64,000 bases of DNA from a phage, in assembly GCA_012401045.1 (NCBI GenBank), contig GCA_012401045.1_4704.2; one strand, written 5' to 3'. Under the pieces are notes generated by a model. The model worked only from the letters and a program-made list of their open reading frames with translations. It ran no database searches and was not told the origin of the DNA. The stretch's first letter is position 1, and each line of letters opens with the position of its first letter. This document shows positions 2,465 through 62,693 of the stretch, piece by piece. The position numbers were made by a program, and so were the translations under genes.

Positions 2465-2488
2465 GATTGAAATCTCGCTGGCTTACTT

Positions 2489-2512
2489 CACTTAGGTAAT
2501 ATAGCCGTGAAA
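2489..2512 (-). promoter_or_regulatory. conserved 24-bp promoter-like motif, copy 1 (minus-strand reading TTTCACGGCTATATTACCTAAGTG)
   Basis: Identical 24-mer also at 15021-15044; close variants at 43179-43202 and 51362-51385; each lies 25-140 nt upstream of a minus-strand gene start. Confidence 0.45.
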
Positions 2513-2614
2513 AATGTTGGATTAAGTTAAATACCGCAACCGCAGCTAATTTTATAGGCTTTTAGCCTAAACCAATCATCTTCGGAATCATCATCTTTGA
2601 AACAGGAATCTATC

Positions 2615-3436: not shown

Positions 3437-3442
3437 TTATCG

Positions 3443-3470
3443 AGCCTGTCCTTCGGGGCAGGCTTTTTAT
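3443..3470 (+). terminator. rho-independent terminator (hairpin AGCCTGTCC-TTCG-GGGCAGGCT followed by TTTTT)
   Basis: GC-rich stem with tetraloop and T5 tract immediately after the stop of the 2615-3436 gene. Confidence 0.7.
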
Positions 3471-3545
3471 GCTGTTAAATATCAGGAATAAGAATTAACA
3501 AAATAGGAAAATGGTGTGAATATAACACAAAGGAGGGAGATGATC

Positions 3546-4085: not shown

Positions 4086-4117
4086 CATCCTCCCTTCCCT
4101 TACGGGTTGGGAGGATG
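4086..4117. terminator. conserved GC-rich hairpin family, copy between convergent genes
   Basis: CATCCTCCC-TTCCC-TTAC-GGGTT-GGGAGGATG; minus-strand reading has GTAA loop and is followed by GGTTTTT. Confidence 0.5.
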
Positions 4118-4134
4118 AAATATGCCGTTAAACG

Positions 4135-4780: not shown

Positions 4781-6034
4781 CTACTTCGTTTTCGCCGTTA
4801 TCGGCTGCGATACTGTAATCTCGACCCGATCGACATCGGTACGTTTAACGATGATAAGGCTGCGTTCATCACCGAATGGTTCTGAGATCTTACAAGCCTC
4901 TTTAAGATTTTCGAGAATCGTGCCATGGGGTTCAAACACCGCAAAACCGGAACTAGCGTCGATTCTTATTAAATATACACGCACATTGTTTACGGTAATG
5001 GTGTCATCCGTCTTGAACCCACAGCAGGAGGGTAGACAGAACTGACCATTAACGCAATTAGCTAAGTATGCCTCACCACCGAACATTTCTATTAACGTCA
5101 CCGGTTTAAATGTTTTCTCTGGGAAAGCATTATTAAGAATATCGTTTCCATTCACAAACCAGATCGTTACTTTATCTTCGGAATACGCTAGTCTGTATGG
5201 TTGGGTTGCGGACGCCTGCGCTTTATGCTGGTTAAATAACTTTGATTTTGTCGCAATCACAGCACGACCTTGGGCGTCAAAGTACAGAACTTCATACCCA
5301 ACACATCCGATAAACACGCGACGGTTATTAAGTTCCGGAATTCTGACTACTAACGCATTACCATCTTCCGTCGGTGTAATACCACGTAGGATGATAGATT
5401 CGTTGTTCAATGTTGAGTTGCTCACGATGACGCTTCGCATTACCGCTGGCGACACTATTTCATCTGCTGCAGGTTCAAGTTGCTCCGCTGTTACAGTCAC
5501 GGATCTGTCTTCCTTTTCAACTGGCCAGTTGAAAAGGATTGTTTTATTAAGACAAACAATTGGGGTAATTTCGCCGATACTCCGTATCTTGACTGAGGGG
5601 CAATTGCACACATACGGAACAAAAACATCAATATCGTTGGTCGCTTCTTCAAGCATGCTAGCATACGCCATTGCTTCGGGACGATCGGTGAGATGAATAA
5701 CAGCATAGACGATATCGTCTTTTAACCACGCACGTTTCACTCGTCCTATAACACGATTGATGTCTACAATAACTCTCTGAGCTTTCATCTCCCATTTTAC
5801 TGCATCAGTACCACCCGCAACCACGTTCGGTTTATCCGTGTTTACACGATGAAGGAAACTATTGATTATTTCCTCATCGATCTGGATATCCTTTCTCGCA
5901 AAATTCAACAACGGAATAACGAACTCATTGTTACCGCACTTCTCTGCTCCGCGAATGATAGGAGTACACTTCTTGTTCTCATCTGATCCCCAGATAACTT
6001 TAGTCATTTTCTGTTTCCTTCTTGGGTTTTGCAC
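4781..6034 (-). CDS. hypothetical protein (417 aa), Cys-rich C-terminal half
   Basis: Long ORF in the recombination/nucleotide-metabolism cluster; no metallophosphatase motif order recognisable. Confidence 0.5.
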   Translation of the reverse strand: MQNPRRKQKMTKVIWGSDENKKCTPIIRGAEKCGNNEFVIPLLNFARKDIQIDEEIINSFLHRVNTDKPNVVAGGTDAVKWEMKAQRVIVDINRVIGRVKRAWLKDDIVYAVIHLTDRPEAMAYASMLEEATNDIDVFVPYVCNCPSVKIRSIGEITPIVCLNKTILFNWPVEKEDRSVTVTAEQLEPAADEIVSPAVMRSVIVSNSTLNNESIILRGITPTEDGNALVVRIPELNNRRVFIGCVGYEVLYFDAQGRAVIATKSKLFNQHKAQASATQPYRLAYSEDKVTIWFVNGNDILNNAFPEKTFKPVTLIEMFGGEAYLANCVNGQFCLPSCCGFKTDDTITVNNVRVYLIRIDASSGFAVFEPHGTILENLKEACKISEPFGDERSLIIVKRTDVDRVEITVSQPITAKTK

Positions 6035-9942: not shown

Positions 9943-10056
9943 GCTATGATAATCCTTCTTCGATACCTTCTGAACCACGGGTTCAGAATGCGAAGCTGAA
10001 GCCATACTTCAGCGTTATTTTCTATATCGTTATTTAAATCAGTAGGAGATTACAGC

Positions 10057-11145: not shown

Positions 11146-11164
11146 AAAAGAAATGCTATACAAC

Positions 11165-11199
11165 CTCCTTCCCCGGCCTTGACGGCTAGGGAAGGAGGA
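11165..11199 (+). terminator. GC-rich hairpin terminator (variant of the conserved hairpin family)
   Basis: CCTCCTTCC...GGAAGGAGG stem followed by ATTATAGTTTATTTATT. Confidence 0.5.
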
Positions 11200-12513: not shown

Positions 12514-12957
12514 TTAGCAGTACGTGTCGTTCAACACGCGACTCACGTCTAAATGTTCTAGTTGATGTATAATGCCATCAGCAATGCGTTGTAGATAGGC
12601 TGTCTTATCCAATACCGAATCCGATGAAATCGCCCAGTAGGCTTCTGATACCCGATATTCGCTACCTTCACCGAGACTGACCTGATTAACCAGCTTCACA
12701 TCAGCGTATCTCGTCCCACGTTCAGCGTACCAGTAGATGTTTTCCAGTACGTCCTTTCCCGTTTGTGAAAACACAAACCAAAGCTTCACGTCTAAGCCGG
12801 ATACTTCGACAACAACGCAGCGAAGATGATTCTCCAAAGGCGCAAAAGAGGCTAAACGTTCCAGCGCGTTTTGCAGCGTGGGGTGATTAAGCTTTTCTAG
12901 ATCTTTAGCGGGTTGTTTAGATGATAGCGCGATCGATTTACAGAATTTGGTTTCCAC
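12514..12957 (-). CDS. hypothetical small protein (147 aa)
   Basis: GTG start with AGAGGAA SD; 20-bp palindrome 30 nt upstream. Confidence 0.4.
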   Translation of the reverse strand: METKFCKSIALSSKQPAKDLEKLNHPTLQNALERLASFAPLENHLRCVVVEVSGLDVKLWFVFSQTGKDVLENIYWYAERGTRYADVKLVNQVSLGEGSEYRVSEAYWAISSDSVLDKTAYLQRIADGIIHQLEHLDVSRVLNDTYC

Positions 12958-12987
12958 GGTAGGTTCCTCTTGATAGATGGTAGTAAC

Positions 12988-13007
12988 GGGGATACCGCGG
13001 TATCCCC
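12988..13007. promoter_or_regulatory. perfect 20-bp palindrome GGGGATACCGCGGTATCCCC
   Basis: Located between two small minus-strand genes, about 30 nt upstream of the 12957 start; shares GGATACC half-site with palindrome at 26312. Confidence 0.3.
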
Positions 13008-13065
13008 TAAGTCTTTATAACACATTCCAAGCCATATTGGATACAGGCTCGTTACGTTCGATGAA

Positions 13066-13467
13066 TCACATCAGTTGTTCTTTAAGTTGGGTTAACTTAT
13101 TCGCAACGATGGTCTCAACATCGATGATCTTGTTCATGTTGTCGAGGGTATCCTGCCAGATGAAAATATCCACAGAACGGGTTCCGGTTAACCCGTTCTC
13201 AGGACGATGGTCGCGGGTCACGTAGCGTGGTCTCTGCGGGCTGGTTTGTAACTCGATCCAAAGCGCATCTAACGGACCGTGGTCCGTGACACCTAAGGCG
13301 AAGAATTCACCTCGTACGACCAGAACATCATCAGCCGTCCTGACACGGGTTGATCCTTCGTACACCAATTCCATCTTTGCTCGGCAGGCCGGGTTCCCGT
13401 TCCACGCCTGGACGGCATCGGCAAGGGCTATTGACGTTGCGGTGGTGTTCGTTTGATCATGTTGCAT
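13066..13467 (-). CDS. hypothetical small protein (133 aa)
   Basis: ORF in array of small co-directional genes. Confidence 0.4.
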   Translation of the reverse strand: MQHDQTNTTATSIALADAVQAWNGNPACRAKMELVYEGSTRVRTADDVLVVRGEFFALGVTDHGPLDALWIELQTSPQRPRYVTRDHRPENGLTGTRSVDIFIWQDTLDNMNKIIDVETIVANKLTQLKEQLM

Positions 13468-14938: not shown

Positions 14939-15020
14939 TTAAAAGATCCTCTGTTTTTCACGTTAATTAAACAACGTATTGATTTCTATTTGACAGAACA
15001 CGAACATTGTACGTATCTAT

Positions 15021-15044
15021 CACTTAGGTAATATAGCCGTGAAA
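15021..15044 (-). promoter_or_regulatory. conserved 24-bp promoter-like motif, copy 2
   Basis: Identical to copy at 2489-2512; about 80 nt upstream of the 14938 start. Confidence 0.45.
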
Positions 15045-15151
15045 GGATTTGTGTTACTGTAAGGGTTTTGTTTTTAAGAAGGGATGGATTTAGAAGAGGT
15101 GTTTCAAGGAAGGTAAACGAGGATAGGTATTTTGATTTAAGTAAGTAAGAT

Positions 15152-15249
15152 GTTATCTGTATTGTCTAAGTTATCTTGTTTATCTTAGGTTTAAGTTGTT
15201 TTTATTTATCTTGTTTGTATGTTTAAATTAGATCAATAAGCTTATCTTC
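15152..15249. repeat. iteron-like short direct repeats (five TTATCT-containing units) in AT-rich non-coding region
   Basis: GTTATCTGT, GTTATCTTGTT, TATCTTAGG, TTATCTTGTTTG, CTTATCTTC within about 100 bp. Confidence 0.35.
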
Positions 15250-15263
15250 AAAACAATGGATAA

Positions 15264-15311
15264 CATGTGTTTACTACGCTCGTTGAGTTATAACTCAACG
15301 GTAACACATGT
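15264..15311. repeat. nested inverted repeat (ACATGTGTT ... GTTGAGTTATAACTCAAC ... AACACATGT)
   Basis: 18-bp perfect palindrome flanked by 9-bp inverted arms, inside the gene-free region. Confidence 0.35.
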
Positions 15312-15719
15312 CATCTGTGCATTACACTCCGTTACATGCTAGTTAACAACGTTTTGTGAAGACAAAACGTTCAACTCAAAAAACATTTGTGATACTCTTC
15401 TTCACGTTGTTCATCAGAGTATCTCGTCTATACTCATTGCATTCGTATACGACATAACCGTTATACGCTAACGCTACGCTTATAGCTTGATAACTCTAAG
15501 GATAAAAACATAAACTCGCTTCGCTCGTTTAGTTTTTCTTTTTCTTAGAGTTATCCTGTTGCTCGTCTCTAAAGGACTTCGCTCCTCCCCCGTCCCCCGA
15601 AGGGGCCGAGGTCGTGGAAATTTTACTTTCCAAATACATTTACAACATCTGTAAACTTTTACTCCAGGTACTTAATCTTATCATTAGAAATTATAAAAGA
15701 GAATAAACACAAACATAAA

Positions 15720-15752
15720 CCTTCCTCCTTCCCTTACGGGTTGGAGGAAGGG
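15720..15752 (-). terminator. conserved GC-rich hairpin family copy downstream of the 15763-16656 gene
   Basis: Minus-strand reading CCTTCCTCC-AACCC-GTAA-GGGAA-GGAGGAAGG followed by TTTATGTTTG. Confidence 0.5.
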
Positions 15753-15762
15753 AGAGATTAAA

Positions 15763-24125: not shown

Positions 24126-26279
24126 TTATAACGTTTCGAAGTCGGTTGCTTTGATAACCGCGTTGAAGTTGGCAAGGAATTCCTTAAGCAGTGCTTGGAA
24201 GACATCACGAAACGCTGTGTTCGTCTGCAAGCTGGTTAAATAATCGTTCTTAAGGTAATCGCTCAGCTTACCGATCTTCTGCATCTTCTCGCCGTCTTGG
24301 TTCTCTCCAGGTTCTTGGCTGTTGATGTTAACCCATTTGATCCCTTCGAGATCGCCATCGGCAAGGAAGTTGGCGGGTGTCTCATCGTCGTTCAGGATTT
24401 TAATCGTATCACTGGATTCAATGCCACCGTAAGCTTCCAGAAGCTGGTTGACTGTTAGCTTATTGGTGTTGATTGAACCATTGACACCATCGATACCGAT
24501 GCCTGCACCTGTGATGGATGTCGCCGAAAGATCGATCGGTCCGGTTAACTTACCACCGTTGATCGGTAACGCACCAACTTGCTCAGCGGTGTGTGTATGG
24601 TCAGCTAACGCCGCAAACGCCACGATAGACTTATATGTCGAATACGGCGTCATATACGCTGATTGGTTGGTGTTGTCAGCCGCTTCAGTATCGGTAGCGA
24701 CATTAAAGTTCTGCACGTTGCTGAGACCGACCTGCACCTTCGTTACTTCATGCGGGTTGTTCTTATTGACAACGTGTGCTGCAAAACCATCACCAGCTAA
24801 AGCAGTGATTGCCGCTTTTGTCGCAGCCGGTGTCATATAGCGGTTGGTTGCTTCACCCGTTTGCGCCTCTTCGTCGGAAGCAACAGGATAGTTCTCAACG
24901 CTTCCCAAACCGACTTGGGCTTTTGTTACTTGGTGTGGGTTTTCGGTATTCGCAATATGACTACTGAACCCTTGACCCGCCAGTTGCTCGATTGCGTAAC
25001 GAACAAGTATTGGTGTCATGTACTTGTTGTTAACTTGACCATCGATAGCTTCTTGGGTGGTGGCAACCCCGAAGTTTTGCACGCTCCCCAACCCAACTTG
25101 CGCTTTTGTAACAGCATGAGGGTTATTGGTGTTACCGATGTGATCGGTAACCGTTGGGGTGATTAATCCTGCGATAGCGGCTGCCGTGGTCGCAGGGGTC
25201 ATGTATTTATCGTTAGCAACACCCGCAGCAGCTTCTACGTTAGATGCTACACCGTAGTTCAATACATTTCCTAACCCAACCTGCGCCTTGGTTACCCCGT
25301 GGGGGTTGTTCTTGTCTCCGGTATGGGTTGTCAACGTAGCGTTAACGTTATCGATACGCGTGCTTAAGCTATCAGTGATTGCTTTGATTGCGGCTCGTAC
25401 ACCCGCTGGTGTTGTGTACAGATCTGTGGCCGTACCGGTAATGGTTGTATTACTATCGGCTACACCGTAGTTCTCAACGTTTCCGAGTCCCACCTGGGCT
25501 TTCGTTACCTTGTGTGGGTTGTTGTAGTTGCTGATGTGCGCAGCAGCACTATCACCACTCAGGTTAGCGATCATTTTACGCGTCATCGCCAACGTCATGT
25601 ACAGATTTTCACCGATGGTTTCCAGATCGCTCTCGGTCGCCGTTGTGAAGTTCTGAACATTTCCTAACCCAACTTGAGCCTTGGTTACGCCGTGGGGGTT
25701 ATCGCGACGATTCTCGTGCTGCAGCAATGCAGTCATTGCTTTATTGAACCCTTCTTCAAGCGGTTCTTTCAATGATTCGATTGCAGCCACCACATCGTCC
25801 CACGTCATTGTGTCGGTTTCGACATTATGTTGGTGGTTGATTGGCGGGAATACGGAAGGAACGTCAGCAACCTTTTCCCAGAACGTAACGCGAGGGTCGT
25901 AAAGGTTGTTGGCTAAAACGTTAAGAATTTGTTGTTGATCAAGTGTAAACTCACCCCCCAGTGAATAGTAGTTCAGTTGCAACTGTCCACTGAATGCGGT
26001 GTCCAACAGCATGATGGAACCGTATAATTCCAGGCCGGTCAGCGCAGCCATGGCACGGAAGGGGTGAGTGCATAAAAAGTCAACGCCTTCTTCCAGATAC
26101 GCGTTTGTTTCAGGGTTGTAGATCTTTAACCCATTGCGAAAATATGGCGCGTATTTAGGAACGAGAAAGTTAAATCCGGTCCCCGTGGAAGGACGGACAG
26201 TGACGAGTTCTTCTGGAACCCATGCGCCATCCAAATTCCCCTGCGGGTTATACGGAAGGCGTTTAATTTCATCTGTCAT
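24126..26279 (-). CDS. tail fibre protein (717 aa)
   Basis: About eight repeats of NPH[GAQE]VTKAQVGLGNVxN[FY]; ATG with AAAGGG SD. Confidence 0.7.
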   Translation of the reverse strand: MTDEIKRLPYNPQGNLDGAWVPEELVTVRPSTGTGFNFLVPKYAPYFRNGLKIYNPETNAYLEEGVDFLCTHPFRAMAALTGLELYGSIMLLDTAFSGQLQLNYYSLGGEFTLDQQQILNVLANNLYDPRVTFWEKVADVPSVFPPINHQHNVETDTMTWDDVVAAIESLKEPLEEGFNKAMTALLQHENRRDNPHGVTKAQVGLGNVQNFTTATESDLETIGENLYMTLAMTRKMIANLSGDSAAAHISNYNNPHKVTKAQVGLGNVENYGVADSNTTITGTATDLYTTPAGVRAAIKAITDSLSTRIDNVNATLTTHTGDKNNPHGVTKAQVGLGNVLNYGVASNVEAAAGVANDKYMTPATTAAAIAGLITPTVTDHIGNTNNPHAVTKAQVGLGSVQNFGVATTQEAIDGQVNNKYMTPILVRYAIEQLAGQGFSSHIANTENPHQVTKAQVGLGSVENYPVASDEEAQTGEATNRYMTPAATKAAITALAGDGFAAHVVNKNNPHEVTKVQVGLSNVQNFNVATDTEAADNTNQSAYMTPYSTYKSIVAFAALADHTHTAEQVGALPINGGKLTGPIDLSATSITGAGIGIDGVNGSINTNKLTVNQLLEAYGGIESSDTIKILNDDETPANFLADGDLEGIKWVNINSQEPGENQDGEKMQKIGKLSDYLKNDYLTSLQTNTAFRDVFQALLKEFLANFNAVIKATDFETL

Positions 26280-26311
26280 GATGCGCCCTTTACAAGTTGT
26301 TAGTAAGTATG

Positions 26312-26329
26312 GGATACCCTGGGGTATCC
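26312..26329. promoter_or_regulatory. inverted repeat GGATACCC-TG-GGGTATCC in divergent promoter region
   Basis: 8-bp arms; between fibre gene start 26279 and plus-strand gene start 26384. Confidence 0.3.
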
Positions 26330-26383
26330 TGTGTTAACAGCGGTAAAATATTACTGTAACTATAAAATAAGGGGGCCTCTCCC

Positions 26384-27664
26384 ATGTATACATTGGTAAA
26401 AACTTACGGGTTACCCGTAGGTTCTGGCACGGCCTGGACAGCGCTTGAGGCGGGTGAAAGTGTCCTGAGTACGTTGTTCTCAACGTATCAAAAACTCAAG
26501 ATCCAGGTCCACGAAAGCTATGCTGACCAGCAACAAGTTATTGATCTGTACACATTTCAATCCGAGCTTCAAAACAGCAGCGATACGCTCAATGCGTGGT
26601 TGAAAGCGAAATCGGATGCGCATACCAACCTTCGTGGACAGCCTGGCGAGCTGTCGATTAAAACCCACAAGCTTTATTGTCACGACGCTATTACTGTAGG
26701 CTTTCTCCCTAAAGTCGGTAATAGTGGCTATCATCCGAGCAACGCGATCCCTGAGTCGGAACGCACTGATATCCTGTTGACGAAAGCGAATACGAATTAC
26801 GAAAATATCGGCAAACACTGCTTGTTCACCGTAGGCGGTTATGTTCATCCTCACGTCTACGGTAAAGACGTCGGTGTCTATATCCAGGGTGGGTTCAAGA
26901 CGGCACAGCGCAGCCAAGAAAACGATATCGGCATGATTGATTTTAGCCGTATCGGGAGTTTGGAAATCCATGCTATCACAGAAGAGATGATTGCTGATTC
27001 CACGAAGCTCTTGCCGTATAAGGACGAGATGTACTTGCGGTTACCGCGCAAGGTCGCCGAAGATGAAACCGTCGCGCTGGTGTTCGGGGGATATTTACAT
27101 CTTCTTGACGATTGTTACACGATCGTTAGCGACACGACAGCGAAAATAAACTGCATTAACATGTTTCTCTATGAACGGTACTTCCGTTCCCGTAAATACC
27201 TTGATCTAACATCTCTTGGTATTCTGTTGAACGAAGAAGACCCACAGTCCGACATTGTTGCCAATCGTTTATTGTCCGATAAAGCATTAAAAGCGTGGGT
27301 GACGCATCCTTGCAGTTTCTGGGTGTATATCAAAGCAACATCAATTCAGGTTACGCAAGAACCTTTACCACGAAGCGGTGTACCGGGACAGTATTTCTTA
27401 GGTAAGAAACCGGAAGGATTGATTCGGGCCGATCTCGGTGAGTTACCCGCTTACGTGCAGACCTATGAAAAACCGTTATGGGTACTTCACTCGCGCTGGG
27501 GACTTCGTAAGAACATGTTGTTTGAAAATACGTTGTACAAACATACGCGCGTTAAGCGACTTAACGATACGCCTTATCTTCACCAGGTCTGGTTGGAAAC
27601 GCATGCGACGTTGCAGACAGTACACAAGCTCGAATTGATCGATTCCAGTCAGAAAAACAAATAA
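26384..27664 (+). CDS. hypothetical protein (426 aa)
   Basis: ATG with AAGGGGG SD; divergent from fibre module; followed by conserved hairpin. Confidence 0.5.
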   Translation: MYTLVKTYGLPVGSGTAWTALEAGESVLSTLFSTYQKLKIQVHESYADQQQVIDLYTFQSELQNSSDTLNAWLKAKSDAHTNLRGQPGELSIKTHKLYCHDAITVGFLPKVGNSGYHPSNAIPESERTDILLTKANTNYENIGKHCLFTVGGYVHPHVYGKDVGVYIQGGFKTAQRSQENDIGMIDFSRIGSLEIHAITEEMIADSTKLLPYKDEMYLRLPRKVAEDETVALVFGGYLHLLDDCYTIVSDTTAKINCINMFLYERYFRSRKYLDLTSLGILLNEEDPQSDIVANRLLSDKALKAWVTHPCSFWVYIKATSIQVTQEPLPRSGVPGQYFLGKKPEGLIRADLGELPAYVQTYEKPLWVLHSRWGLRKNMLFENTLYKHTRVKRLNDTPYLHQVWLETHATLQTVHKLELIDSSQKNK

Positions 27665-27674
27665 CCAAACATAA

Positions 27675-27706
27675 CCCTCCTCCAACCCGTAAGGGAAGGA
27701 GGAGGG
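27675..27706. terminator. conserved GC-rich hairpin family copy (CCCTCCTCC-AACCC-GTAA-GGGAA-GGAGGAGGG)
   Basis: Between convergent genes; GNRA-type GTAA loop closed by CCC/GGG. Confidence 0.5.
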
Positions 27707-27715
27707 AATATGCTG

Positions 27716-36743: not shown

Positions 36744-36773
36744 ACGGATGTAAAAAAAATAACACATAGTTAA

Positions 36774-36809
36774 CCTTCTCCCCAACCCGATGAGGGAAGG
36801 GGAGAAGGG
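36774..36809 (+). terminator. conserved GC-rich hairpin family variant followed by T-rich tract
   Basis: CCTTCTCCCC-AACCC-GATGA-GGGAA-GGGGAGAAGG then CTATGCGCTATTTAATTTATT. Confidence 0.5.
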
Positions 36810-36828
36810 CTATGCGCTATTTAATTTA

Positions 36829-43028: not shown

Positions 43029-43178
43029 CGTCAACCTCCATCAGATTGAAAACTATCACGCATAATACATTTCCCTTTTCTTGTTCTTATCGAGCCGACA
43101 GCCGACGGTTTCAGCATCGTTCCTAGCGCGAGAACGACCTTACGTGTTGTCTATGCCTTATTCATCGCAGGCGTCTGT

Positions 43179-43202
43179 CACCTAGGTAATGTAAGCGTCA
43201 AA
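43179..43202 (-). promoter_or_regulatory. conserved 24-bp promoter-like motif, copy 3 (variant TTTGACGCTTACATTACCTAGGTG)
   Basis: Downstream of capsid-gene hairpin and about 150 nt upstream of the 43028 start. Confidence 0.4.
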
Positions 43203-43236
43203 TTTTTTCTATTCGCAACGATAAACGGCATAGAAA

Positions 43237-43266
43237 CCTCCCCCAACCCTTGCGGGCTGAGGGAGG
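43237..43266 (-). terminator. GC-rich hairpin (family variant) downstream of the capsid-like gene
   Basis: Minus-strand CCTCCC...GGGAGG stem followed by TTTCTATGCC. Confidence 0.45.
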
Positions 43267-43365
43267 CTGACTTATGTATCACGGTGCCGGATGAATGTCC
43301 GGTGCAATGAAACCATCCGCAACGTTGTCATCAAGAATATCATCCAACGAAGCAGCTACGGTAGT

Positions 43366-48008: not shown

Positions 48009-48037
48009 ACGCAAAAAAAAAAAAAGATTGTACGGTT

Positions 48038-48069
48038 CCCTCCTCCAACCCGTAAGGGAAGGAGGAAGG
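48038..48069. terminator. conserved GC-rich hairpin family copy, flanked by A13/T13 homopolymer
   Basis: CCCTCCTCC-AACCC-GTAA-GGGAA-GGAGGAAGG; preceded by 13 A at about 48012-48026. Confidence 0.5.
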
Positions 48070-48085
48070 TTTATGACCGCTTTGA

Positions 48086-49459: not shown

Positions 49460-49535
49460 CGTATTTTACCTTTCTATGTTAGGTGGATTTCGGATAGAAG
49501 AATCAATGCATAAACTAATTTAAGTTTGTTAAGGT

Positions 49536-50438
49536 TTACTTAGCCTTTGAGTTATACGGACTAACATGTTGTTGTACTCGTTGGATTGTATCGTAGTACG
49601 GGTTAAGTTGATTGAACATGTTGTTGTGTGGGTGATAGCCATATGGCGCATTTTGCCTTGTTGGTGAGAAACCTTGTTGAGAAGGACGGTTTGAATTAAC
49701 CGCGAGTACGTAGTAAACCAAATTTTGGCGGTCGAACGTTCCTTCGTTTTTGAAGGTGTCGGCGTAGGCGCTTACCGCTGGAGCGAGCCTATCACCATCG
49801 GTTGTAATGATTGTGCCATCGGGATAAACTTCCCGAACGACGCACCATGTTCCGATGAGAACATCTTTGGGTGATGTATTACCGTATCCGGTTGTAACGG
49901 TAAGGTAAGTATCGAACCCTTCAGAACAACAAGGATGACGATAGATGGGTCCTGTCATTTCCAGTCTATCGGTGTCACCGCATTTCTCTATTGAGAGCGA
50001 TGATGTGTCGGTTTTGAAATTGTCAAATTCTTTCTTTAAGTCGATTACGGGTTCTTTCGTATAGTACTTCTTGATTGCTTTGACGTAAAGATCGGGAACG
50101 GTTGTCAGCAATCCGTTATACCTGATTCTCAGGTTTTCGAGTAATCCAAAGATGCTCGCGCATGCCTGTTCGCGAGGTTTTGTAAGATAAGAGATCCCCC
50201 CAGGAACGCTGGGATCTTTGAGAAAGAAGATTGCGTTATTGTCGTTGTGCGATGCGTTGAAGAAAACGATTGATTCGATATATACGGAGCATAGGCTGTC
50301 GTTGGCGTCGTCAGATAACACCCAGATGCACTCATCGGTCGTCTTGTTTAAAAGTTCTGTTTTGTCGACCAAACGTTGTTTCATTGCGAGGAAATGTGCC
50401 TGTTGTTCAGCGGATAATTCACGATAAATGGTGGTCAT
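49536..50438 (-). CDS. hypothetical protein (300 aa), paralog of 50524-51306
   Basis: Shared motif IY-x-HP-x-C ... YLT-x-T-x-G ... REVYPDG-x-I; ATG with AAGGAG SD. Confidence 0.5.
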   Translation of the reverse strand: MTTIYRELSAEQQAHFLAMKQRLVDKTELLNKTTDECIWVLSDDANDSLCSVYIESIVFFNASHNDNNAIFFLKDPSVPGGISYLTKPREQACASIFGLLENLRIRYNGLLTTVPDLYVKAIKKYYTKEPVIDLKKEFDNFKTDTSSLSIEKCGDTDRLEMTGPIYRHPCCSEGFDTYLTVTTGYGNTSPKDVLIGTWCVVREVYPDGTIITTDGDRLAPAVSAYADTFKNEGTFDRQNLVYYVLAVNSNRPSQQGFSPTRQNAPYGYHPHNNMFNQLNPYYDTIQRVQQHVSPYNSKAK

Positions 50439-50523
50439 GTTGAGCTCCTTGATTACGATAAGGATGATTGCGGTTTTGTGGTGTTGGTAGGGCCCTAAAC
50501 AAATGAACCCTACTAATATTAGG

Positions 50524-51306
50524 TTAATCGGGATCGGCGTAGAAATGGTGAGGATAGCCGGAGTACGATCCCGCGTTACCGGTTATGGATTCTTTCTGGG
50601 AATCGACGACGAGTGCATAGAACTGTCGGGAATTTGTTAGCGTTGAGAAATAAGAGGAAAGGACTTTTTCATTCAACGCATCGCAAGGTAGACAGGTGCG
50701 ACCGCAAAACGTCACGATACGGCCGTCAGGATAGATCTCACGAATCATTCTCCACTCGCCAATATCGACTGGTGATGGCGCTGCTACACCACCTGTTATC
50801 GTTAAGTAACGATCGTACGTGGTATGGCATTCAGGATGAACGTAAATCGGTTGGGCATCAATACTATCGTTTTCTGTTTGATCTTTATTCACGTATACCT
50901 CAAGGTAGATTGTTGGTAACCCGGTTAGAACGCCAGTGTCACGACGTTTTTTGGTAATCCGGGGACGGATATTATCGAGCACGCCTTCCAGTTTTTCTGC
51001 GACTTCGTCAGCCGGTAATATATACCCGTATGTTGGTTCTGGGTCATCACCGTGGCTAAATAAGATACGACAGTCGTTTTTATTAAATTCTATATCTTCA
51101 GGTGGGAAGATGATGACGCGAACCGTATGGCGTTCTGCGATATAAAATCCTTCAGGCCCCTCAGTTTTGGTAAGTGTAAAGGACCAGGATGAATGATCTT
51201 CAAGTGACGTGCCTGCCAGGAAAAAGTCCGCCCGAATTGGTGCGTTCCATTTCGCGATCATATTGGCGTGACCAATAACGCCTAATTTTTGATAAATATC
51301 TGTCAT
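50524..51306 (-). CDS. hypothetical protein (260 aa), paralog of 49536-50438
   Basis: Shared Cys/His-containing motif; ATG with GAGGA SD; promoter-like motif copy 4 upstream. Confidence 0.5.
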   Translation of the reverse strand: MTDIYQKLGVIGHANMIAKWNAPIRADFFLAGTSLEDHSSWSFTLTKTEGPEGFYIAERHTVRVIIFPPEDIEFNKNDCRILFSHGDDPEPTYGYILPADEVAEKLEGVLDNIRPRITKKRRDTGVLTGLPTIYLEVYVNKDQTENDSIDAQPIYVHPECHTTYDRYLTITGGVAAPSPVDIGEWRMIREIYPDGRIVTFCGRTCLPCDALNEKVLSSYFSTLTNSRQFYALVVDSQKESITGNAGSYSGYPHHFYADPD

Positions 51307-51361
51307 GATTGTATCCTCGGTTATTAAGAGAATTTACAACGATAACAGTAACCGCTGTTAT

Positions 51362-51385
51362 CACCTAGGTAATGTAGTCGCGAAA
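51362..51385 (-). promoter_or_regulatory. conserved 24-bp promoter-like motif, copy 4 (variant TTTCGCGACTACATTACCTAGGTG)
   Basis: About 55 nt upstream of the 51306 start, immediately downstream of a family hairpin. Confidence 0.4.
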
Positions 51386-51419
51386 TAAACTGGAGTAATG
51401 CGAAATAAGACAGCATAAG

Positions 51420-51451
51420 CCCTCTCCCAACCCGTAAGGGAAGGGAGAGGG
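51420..51451 (-). terminator. conserved GC-rich hairpin family copy
   Basis: CCCTCTCCC-AACCC-GTAA-GGGAA-GGGAGAGGG just past the stop of the 51456-52823 gene. Confidence 0.5.
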
Positions 51452-51455
51452 AATA

Positions 51456-56672: not shown

Positions 56673-56724
56673 CGCAGATTCCTGTTTGAAAGATAAGATA
56701 TCACATGATGGTCGACAGCATAAA

Positions 56725-56744
56725 GCCCACCCCGAAGGGCGGGC
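56725..56744 (-). terminator. hairpin GCCCGCCC-TTCG-GGGTGGGC (minus-strand reading) followed by TTTATG
   Basis: Immediately downstream of the 1125-aa gene stop. Confidence 0.45.
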
Positions 56745-62545: not shown

Positions 62546-62652
62546 TTGGGACTCCTACGTAGGAAAATCTTGGCGGGTGATCATGTCCGCCATTTACCTT
62601 CTGAACCGTTGATTCAGAAGTCAAAAGATAACCGGATACCAACGCCATAAAC

Positions 62653-62684
62653 CTTCCTCCAACCCAACAGGGAAGGAGGAAGGG
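62653..62684 (-). terminator. conserved GC-rich hairpin family copy (loop variant AACA)
   Basis: CCTTCCTCC-AACCC-AACA-GGGAA-GGAGGAAGG; minus strand followed by TTTATGGCG. Confidence 0.5.
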
Positions 62685-62693
62685 ATATGGTGA

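Follow-up and report, generated by a model that had tools for sequence, protein, structure and literature searches.

Intercistronic and 3'-UTR stem-loops, such as the REP hairpins of malEFG in Escherichia coli, bring about differential mRNA stability or attenuation within operons, and stabilising stem-loops at the 5' end are found in bacterial and phage mRNAs, for example in the ompA leader. Promoter-early stem-loop (PeSL) cassettes occur in T4-type phages. In phage phiKZ, a conserved intrinsic terminator has been defined as 5'-BCCYCCCCHWWDGGGRRGGBYTTATKYYGT-3' (PMC10914365). The late promoter core of this phage is (-3)TATG(+1); the region downstream of it also matters, in a manner left unexplained (PMC7618050, PMC7598289), and all four bases of TATG are required in vitro (PMC7598289). 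Of 132 mapped transcript 3' ends in the relative 201phi2-1, 52 were classed as canonical intrinsic terminators (PMC11512511), and therefore non-canonical ends are common in the virus family to which Escherichia phage vB_EcoM_Goslar belongs.

Goslar (NC_048170) belongs to the Chimalliviridae and is a jumbo phage that forms a nucleus. The stretch of phage DNA analysed here, which is 64,000 nucleotides long and is called the window below, is a close relative of Goslar, with 91-99.7% identity by megablast of two regions. The gene order in the window is that of Goslar gp001-gp056, and most proteins are more than 93% identical to their Goslar counterparts. Sharp mosaicism was seen at gp009, gp017, gp019, gp021, gp026 and gp056, with 61-79% protein identity (approximately 62-65% for gp009, gp017, gp021 and gp026, and 76% for gp019) against more than 93% for most neighbours. 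These mosaic genes indicate that cassette exchange is frequent among Goslar-like phages. Such phages are also common in metagenomes, the gp030 protein being indexed in 276 blocks.

We examined two palindromes in this window which a sequence-only reading had proposed as operator sites for a dimeric DNA-binding regulator or, alternatively, as RNA hairpins. The anatomy of both sites is established and agrees exactly with that reading. Site 1, GGGGATACCGCGGTATCCCC at 12988-13007, lies in the 108-nt spacer of two co-directional minus-strand genes, at 58 nt from the stop codon of gp018 and 30 nt upstream of the start of gp017 (GTG, 12957). Site 2, GGATACCCTGGGGTATCC at 26312-26329, lies in the 104-nt spacer of two divergent genes, 32 nt from the minus-strand start of gp029 (ATG, 26279) and 54 nt from the plus-strand start of gp030 (26384), so that the distance of about 30 nt to a minus-strand start given in the earlier reading was also correct. 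Both contain the GGATACC/GGTATCC half-site, with unlike spacers of 2 nt (GC) at site 1 and 4 nt (CTGG) at site 2. Perfect Watson-Crick palindromes fold equally well as DNA or on either RNA strand, and for site 1 the predicted RNA fold has an energy of -14.7 kcal/mol whichever strand is used, with z = -2.8 for the sense strand. Based on the analyses described below, we consider it rather probable that the two palindromes, if they act at all, are independent RNA stem-loops on their transcripts and do not form an operator pair. The hairpin alternative is a better fit than operators, although it did not hold for a matched pair and applies instead to two independent stem-loops. The features discussed are collected in Table 1.

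Table 1. Positions in the window of the two palindromes, the neighbouring genes and the predicted promoter, terminator and RNA elements
Feature	Position	Strand	Remarks
Site 1 stem-loop, type-B form	12988..13007	-	GGGGAUAC / CGCG loop / GUAUCCCC, 8-10 bp; between gp018 and gp017
gp018 homologue	13066..13467	-	Hypothetical protein, upstream of site 1; 94% identical to Goslar gp018
gp018 variable 3' untranslated segment	13008..13065	-	Travels with the hairpin variant in alignments
gp017 leader	12958..12987	-	GTTACTACCAT-CTATCAAGAGGAACCTACC with Shine-Dalgarno; conserved in both haplotypes
gp017 homologue	12514..12957	-	Hypothetical protein, mosaic, downstream of site 1; 63% identical to Goslar gp017
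Predicted early (virion RNA polymerase type) promoter	15020..15046	-	cctttcacggc-TATATTAC-ctaagtga; heads the gp021-to-gp014 block with site 1
Early-promoter copies in the window	2488-2514, 15020-15046, 43178-43204, 51361-51387	-	At 2503, 15035, 43193 and 51376
Bidirectional phiKZ-type terminator hairpin	11164..11198		Closes the gp021-to-gp014 block; annotated terminator in Goslar
phiKZ-type terminator motifs	3441-3475, 4086-4125, 11164-11198, 27675-27715, 36770-36815, 43220-43270, 48030-48075, 51417-51455, 56690-56735, 62640-62693		Approximate positions
Site 2 stem-loop	26312..26329	.	GGAUACC(C)/(G)GGUAUCC; divergent gp029/gp030 spacer; identical in 13/13 Goslar-like genomes sampled
Extended RNA stem at site 2	26306..26335	+	13 bp including G.U pairs; plus-strand transcript only
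TATG adjoining the site 2 hairpin	26308..26311	+	Candidate phiKZ-type late promoter core; TGTG in 2/13 genomes
gp029 homologue	24126..26279	-	Virion protein
gp030 homologue	26384..27664	+	Conserved chimallivirus protein; 100% identical to Goslar gp030

For site 1 we compared 22 Goslar-like contigs that span the spacer, which are not necessarily independent isolates, and the haplotype structure at this position is established. Fourteen contigs carry the window form, GGGGATACC-GC-GGTATCCCC, and the other eight, including Goslar (in which the equivalent of site 1 is 13016-13033), have GGGGAC-ATCGCC-GTCCCC (GGGGACATCGCCGTCCCC) instead, with no GGATACC. Both forms are found at the same position, just before the conserved GTTACTAYCAT...CTATCAAGAGGAACCT leader, and both are clamped by GGGGA...TCCCC with differing interiors and one compensatory pair (T-A to C-G). 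GGATACC is therefore dispensable at site 1, while pairing is retained. The window form shows three independent substitutions, of which two affect the central CGCG that would be the loop and one the outermost pair; the stem core has none. By pair counting, 94.9% of cells are paired, compared with 35-63% when partners are slid; covariation across the five distinct sequences was not significant, since 101 of 500 shuffles equalled it. The exact site 1 palindrome is absent from IMG/VR.

The form of the hairpin tracks the 3' end of gp018 (133-aa versus 135-aa forms) and not gp017, and site 1 therefore behaves as part of a gp018 3' cassette. In one contig, L023, a window-type hairpin (96% identity) is joined to a Goslar-type gp017 (93-100%), with the switch immediately after the hairpin; the recombination joint is located within the gp017 leader or at the very start of gp017. 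A Pfam search of the eight proteins gp014-gp021, gp017 and gp018 included, found no domain. In view of this lack of a domain match and of the recombinant L023, gp017 was rejected as an autoregulator that co-evolves with the palindrome upstream of it. In the Goslar-type gp018 3' UTR (Goslar approximately 13045-13075; contigs L017, L018 and L019-L022) a second, longer hairpin was observed upstream of site 1. This hairpin, CCCGCCTGTACCC-CATC-GGGTTCGGGCGGG, is perfectly paired in contig L017 (GGGTACAGGCGGG), and its variants can form U.G pairs on the sense strand only, which hints that it may be an RNA structure.

We also considered whether the palindromes are DNA-level recombination joints or cruciform-prone linkers for the shuffling of gene cassettes. 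Site 1 does lie at a mosaic boundary, between the well-conserved gp018 and the divergent gp017, the crossover in L023 is immediately downstream of its hairpin, and hairpins in this genome form small families of related sequence, of which the TTCTGAACC pair described below is an example. However, the crossover falls in the conserved flank and not in the palindrome, a single recombinant was seen, and site 2 is in the least variable part of its region, so that we regard recombination joints as highly improbable.

The genes around site 1 appear to be transcribed early. Using k-mer enrichment in upstream regions we found two motifs, an early promoter and a GC-rich hairpin followed by (T)TTATGCYG. 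The early-promoter consensus, derived from approximately 11 Goslar sites, is A/T-rich..TTTCACGGC-TATATTAC-YTNNGTGA, in which we take TATATTAC to be the phiKZ early-promoter core. Because the consensus is present at 15035 and no canonical terminator is found before 11164-11198, gp021-gp014 is a probable early operon, its activity being predicted from the sequence, and site 1 would be intercistronic within it, about 2 kb downstream of its likely promoter. Neither the consensus nor its core is found near site 1. Near site 2 there are only the cores AATATTAC and TATTTTAC, which were ruled out as early promoters since the flanking consensus blocks are missing. Site 1 can be likened to the PeSL cassettes of T4-type phages, in that its stem-loop adjoins a mosaic junction and the genes of the block are small, evolve fast and are probably early, but it differs from them in that no promoter is attached to the hairpin and its sequence is not present in many copies.

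The early-promoter copy at 51376 falls within the ORF that is named gp047 in the Goslar annotation, and its presence there casts some doubt on gp047 being a real gene. Downstream of the same promoter, the window has about 1.8 kb of extra DNA (49460-51326) that is absent from Goslar and codes for two minus-strand hypothetical proteins, of 300 aa (49536-50438) and 260 aa (50524-51306). Neither protein has a Pfam match or similarity to gp021. A ..HP.C....D.YLT.T.G.. motif, seen by eye, is common to the two, and they may be paralogues. A further stretch of 824 nt (14939-15762) has no annotated gene, in Goslar likewise, and includes the early promoter at 15035 and two palindromes, at 15281-15300 (CGTTGAGTTATAACTCAACG) and 15348-15371.

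The case for a single dimeric regulator rests first on the half-site. The window has two exact, intergenic inverted repeats of GGATACC where none is expected in window shuffles, and GGATACC itself occurs 16 times, compared with 5.0 +/- 2.2 in dinucleotide shuffles, although 11 of the 16 copies are intragenic. In the whole 237-kb Goslar genome, which we used for half-site counts, there are 60 copies, of which 57 are coding and 25 are in the single frame xxG-GAT-ACC (Asp-Thr). Synonymous-codon shuffles of Goslar gave 44 +/- 5.6 coding copies against the 57 observed, leaving a mild residual. The half-site frequency that the sequence-only reading had asked about is thus above random expectation, but since nearly all Goslar copies are coding and synonymous shuffles largely reproduce the excess, it is mostly coding bias, and GGATACC is ruled out as an over-represented regulatory half-site. 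A search for GGATACC-N(0-12)-GGTATCC, of the kind suggested in the sequence-only reading, found one occurrence in Goslar, which is site 2, and two in the window with no third, and consequently the genome-wide regulon that such a search might have revealed is ruled out.

The sharing of a 7-mer by two hairpins is itself of borderline significance. Among 13 perfect intergenic hairpins in the window, the probability that any pair has a common 7-mer is approximately 0.05, and two pairs have one, namely the two palindromes studied here and a TTCTGAACC pair. This shows a tendency of the hairpins to form small sequence families, which perhaps arise by cassette duplication. The members of the TTCTGAACC family are TTCTGAACC-ACG-GGTTCAGAA (9968-9988) and CTTCTGAA-CCGTTGA-TTCAGAAG (62598-62620); they have a common 13-mer on the minus strand, GGTTCAGAAGGTA, and a copy of GATACC/GGTATCC near each. 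TTACTA directly follows both site 1 and site 2 on the minus strand. As a motif common to hairpins, TTACTA was rejected, since it turned up in 9 upstream regions out of 247, its position varied from one to the next, and it was otherwise not tied to hairpins. Given the common 7-mer (P of about 0.05) and the TTACTA after both sites, some link between site 1 and site 2 may be possible. The presence of GGATACC at both sites is best explained by coincidence or by distant common descent of hairpin cassettes.

Taken with the position of site 2 in the control region of divergent genes, where operators are classically found, and with possible DNA-binding proteins annotated elsewhere in Goslar (gp115, 'similar to transcriptional regulator', and gp119, SANT/Myb), the exact inverted repeats and their borderline 7-mer sharing resemble palindromic operators of dimeric repressors. 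In contrast to such operators, the half-site is not preserved among orthologues of site 1, eight relatives lacking it while keeping the hairpin; there is no regulon, the inverted arrangement being found once in the whole of Goslar; and there is no adjacent regulator gene, the neighbouring proteins having no recognisable DNA-binding domain and the hairpin variant not co-varying with gp017. The spacing also varies, and the step from a 2-nt to a 4-nt spacer would turn the half-sites by about 70 degrees, a difference that rigid dimers seldom accommodate. In addition, site 1 is between two cistrons and far downstream of its likely promoter, the two sites appear to be of unlike temporal class (an inferred early block and a pair of virion-protein genes), and the remaining copies of the half-site are explained by Asp-Thr coding. 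It is therefore very unlikely that one dimeric regulator binds both palindromes.

Site 2 separates two virion genes. Goslar gp29 has been detected in virions and is likely to be a peripheral baseplate or tail-fibre component, and the gp030 homologues of several relatives carry the annotation virion structural protein. Homologues of gp030 are present in 248 phage records, and all non-Goslar records are below 60% identity; among the matches listed, homologues outside the Goslar group are less than 30% identical, and these more distant relatives were rejected for intergenic alignment as too far. Across 13 Goslar-like genomes, the sole variable column of the 104-nt spacer is A26309, which changes to G and turns an A-U pair into G.U. 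This invariance extends over approximately 650 nt (25904-26560), a diversity trough that comprises the spacer, roughly 125 codons at the start of gp029 and roughly 60 at the start of gp030 and is almost invariant even at synonymous sites, compared with 516 variable columns of 4281 elsewhere in the 4.3-kb gp029/gp030 locus. Because the invariance is regional, it says nothing specific about the hairpin, and conservation of site 2 was discarded as a sign of function. The conservation in relatives that the sequence-only reading had suggested checking was therefore found at site 2, as part of a regionally invariant stretch, and failed for the half-site at site 1, where only the pairing is kept. The trough itself may be due to overlapping signals, regulatory or RNA, or else to a sweep or a recombination tract of recent date.

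The predicted fold of site 2 is stronger on the plus strand (-14.3 kcal/mol, 13 bp) than on the minus strand (-11.2 kcal/mol, 7 bp). The extended stem and the A-to-G change weakly suggest that the folded species at site 2 is plus-strand RNA. A doubtful but more credible alternative than those considered above is that the gp030 mRNA begins at G26311 (+1), which is 26382 in Goslar, from a phiKZ-type late promoter formed by the TATG next to site 2, and that site 2 is a 5'-terminal hairpin which guards the gp030 mRNA from 5'-end-dependent decay. TATG is the phiKZ late consensus, for which the region past the start matters (PMC7618050, PMC7598289), gp030 homologues are annotated as virion structural proteins, the segment from +1 to +30 folds at -11.3 kcal/mol with the fold beginning at +1, and like layouts of TATG followed by a hairpin are found upstream of gp023 and of the major head gene. 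On the other hand, the A of this TATG is G in two of 13 genomes, whereas phiKZ needs all four bases in vitro (PMC7598289), and the wobble-extended stem includes TATG itself and would need a start site further upstream. When 86 intergenic TATGs were compared with 2853 control positions, 5'-anchored hairpins were not enriched (13.3% after intergenic TATG versus 11.1% at control G positions, Fisher p = 0.35), and TATG followed by a 5' hairpin was rejected as a general late-promoter architecture. TATG is absent from site 1 and from the minus strand of the 340 nt that precede gp029. Site 2 could begin within 1 nt of a TATG-type start and would then form a 5'-terminal hairpin, as in the ompA leader; it differs in that this start is only predicted, TATG is not conserved in two of 13 genomes and the genome has no general association of TATG with hairpins.

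Returning to the reading of independent stem-loops, we found that perfect inverted repeats with arms of at least 8 bp have a density in intergenic DNA that is 9-12 times that in coding DNA, and that the window contains 19 of them, about twice the 8.6 +/- 3.1 obtained in Markov-1 simulations. This density and intergenic enrichment indicate that the hairpins themselves are not random. That one or both palindromes are nonetheless functionless, as chance or hitch-hiking sequence, is unlikely: repeats with 8-bp arms are indeed expected several times per 64 kb (8.6 in the simulations), and the conservation of site 2 is not hairpin-specific, but inverted repeats are strongly enriched in intergenic DNA, pairing at site 1 is kept across two haplotypes, and substitutions there avoid the stem core.

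The phiKZ-type terminator predominates in this genome. Its motif is abundant in the window in the form CCTCC..CCC-GTAA-GGG..GGAGG followed by TTTATGCYG, so that a chimallivirus of E. coli has it in common with phiKZ. Between convergent gene pairs, the terminator hairpin is often followed by TTATG or TATG on both strands. Goslar has 44 intergenic hairpins with a perfect stem; a terminator-type tail follows 21 of them and is absent from the other 23, which include both sites. The exclusion of canonical signal classes is established for the two sites. Neither has the CCYCCCC ... GGGRRGG stem, their stems being GGGGATAC/GTATCCCC (site 1) and GGATACC/GGTATCC (site 2), and neither has the TTATKYYGT tail on either strand, the tails being GTTACTACC and TAAGTCTTT at site 1 and CATACTTAC and TGTGTTAAC at site 2. 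A scan with the Rho-independent terminator consensus reported neither site, a hairpin being present and a U-tract lacking at both. A phiKZ-type or Rho-independent terminator was therefore ruled out for both sites on stem and tail. No family of Rfam 15 reached the gathering score anywhere in the window, and near the two sites no match had E <= 1. Both sites share with the phiKZ-type terminator (PMC10914365) that they are GC-rich intergenic stem-loops in a chimallivirus, but they differ from it in lacking the C-run/G-run stem and the TTATKYYGT tail, and site 2, between divergent genes, has nothing to terminate. The two sites are members of a populous and heterogeneous class of 'orphan' GC-rich intergenic stem-loops of varied sequence.

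Other perfect palindromes were observed in the window. A 24-bp palindrome, AGGTCCTCTGATATCAGAGGACCT, is located at 1776-1799 between gp003 and gp004 and is followed on the minus strand by CTTTATAT; its equivalent is annotated as a terminator in Goslar. A 28-bp palindrome, TCCTTTTCAACTGGCCAGTTGAAAAGGA, lies at 5511-5538 within the coding sequence of the mosaic gp009, which is 62% identical to its Goslar counterpart.

Drawing on what is known of stem-loops in operons and on the 3' ends of 201phi2-1 (PMC11512511), we infer separate roles for the two sites. Site 1 would be carried inside an early polycistronic transcript running from gp021 to gp014, as part of the gp018 3' end cassette, and would serve as an intercistronic barrier or attenuator. 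Its hairpin may pause or partly stop the polymerase without a U-tract or, alternatively, may keep 3' exonucleases off the upstream segment once the mRNA has been cleaved; in both cases, unequal levels of the genes before and after the hairpin would result. Site 2, in the region that controls the two divergent virion-protein genes, would be a stem-loop in the leader or near the 5' end; it is predicted to fold best on the plus-strand (gp030) RNA and may stabilise the gp030 mRNA. Site 1 is comparable with the malEFG-type stem-loops in that it is GC-rich, has no U-tract, lies between co-directional cistrons, is clear of the downstream ribosome-binding site and is tied to the upstream gene. It differs from them in being known from its sequence, and as its transcript would come from a phage multisubunit RNA polymerase working in a vesicle or phage nucleus, nucleases and polymerase behaviour may differ.

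In conclusion, the GGATACC regulon was a false lead, which our analysis removes, and the two palindromes can be counted as ordinary stem-loops of untranslated DNA; by itself this matters little. Its by-products, the early-promoter consensus, the phiKZ terminator motif and the finding that about half of the intergenic hairpins are tail-less, are useful for the annotation of Goslar-type phages. As the most remote of the readings considered here, the orphan chimallivirus hairpins, with both sites among them, would be recognition signals for a virus-specific step. In this step the multisubunit RNA polymerases of the phage might pause or terminate independently of a U-tract, or a phage RNA-binding protein might bind the hairpins in mRNA export from the vesicle or phage nucleus. 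If this were true, the GGAUACC stem that an early and a late transcript have in common would be genuinely recognised by a protein. If the orphan hairpins define mRNA ends, they would be informative on how the phage RNA polymerases stop or how phage mRNA is processed.
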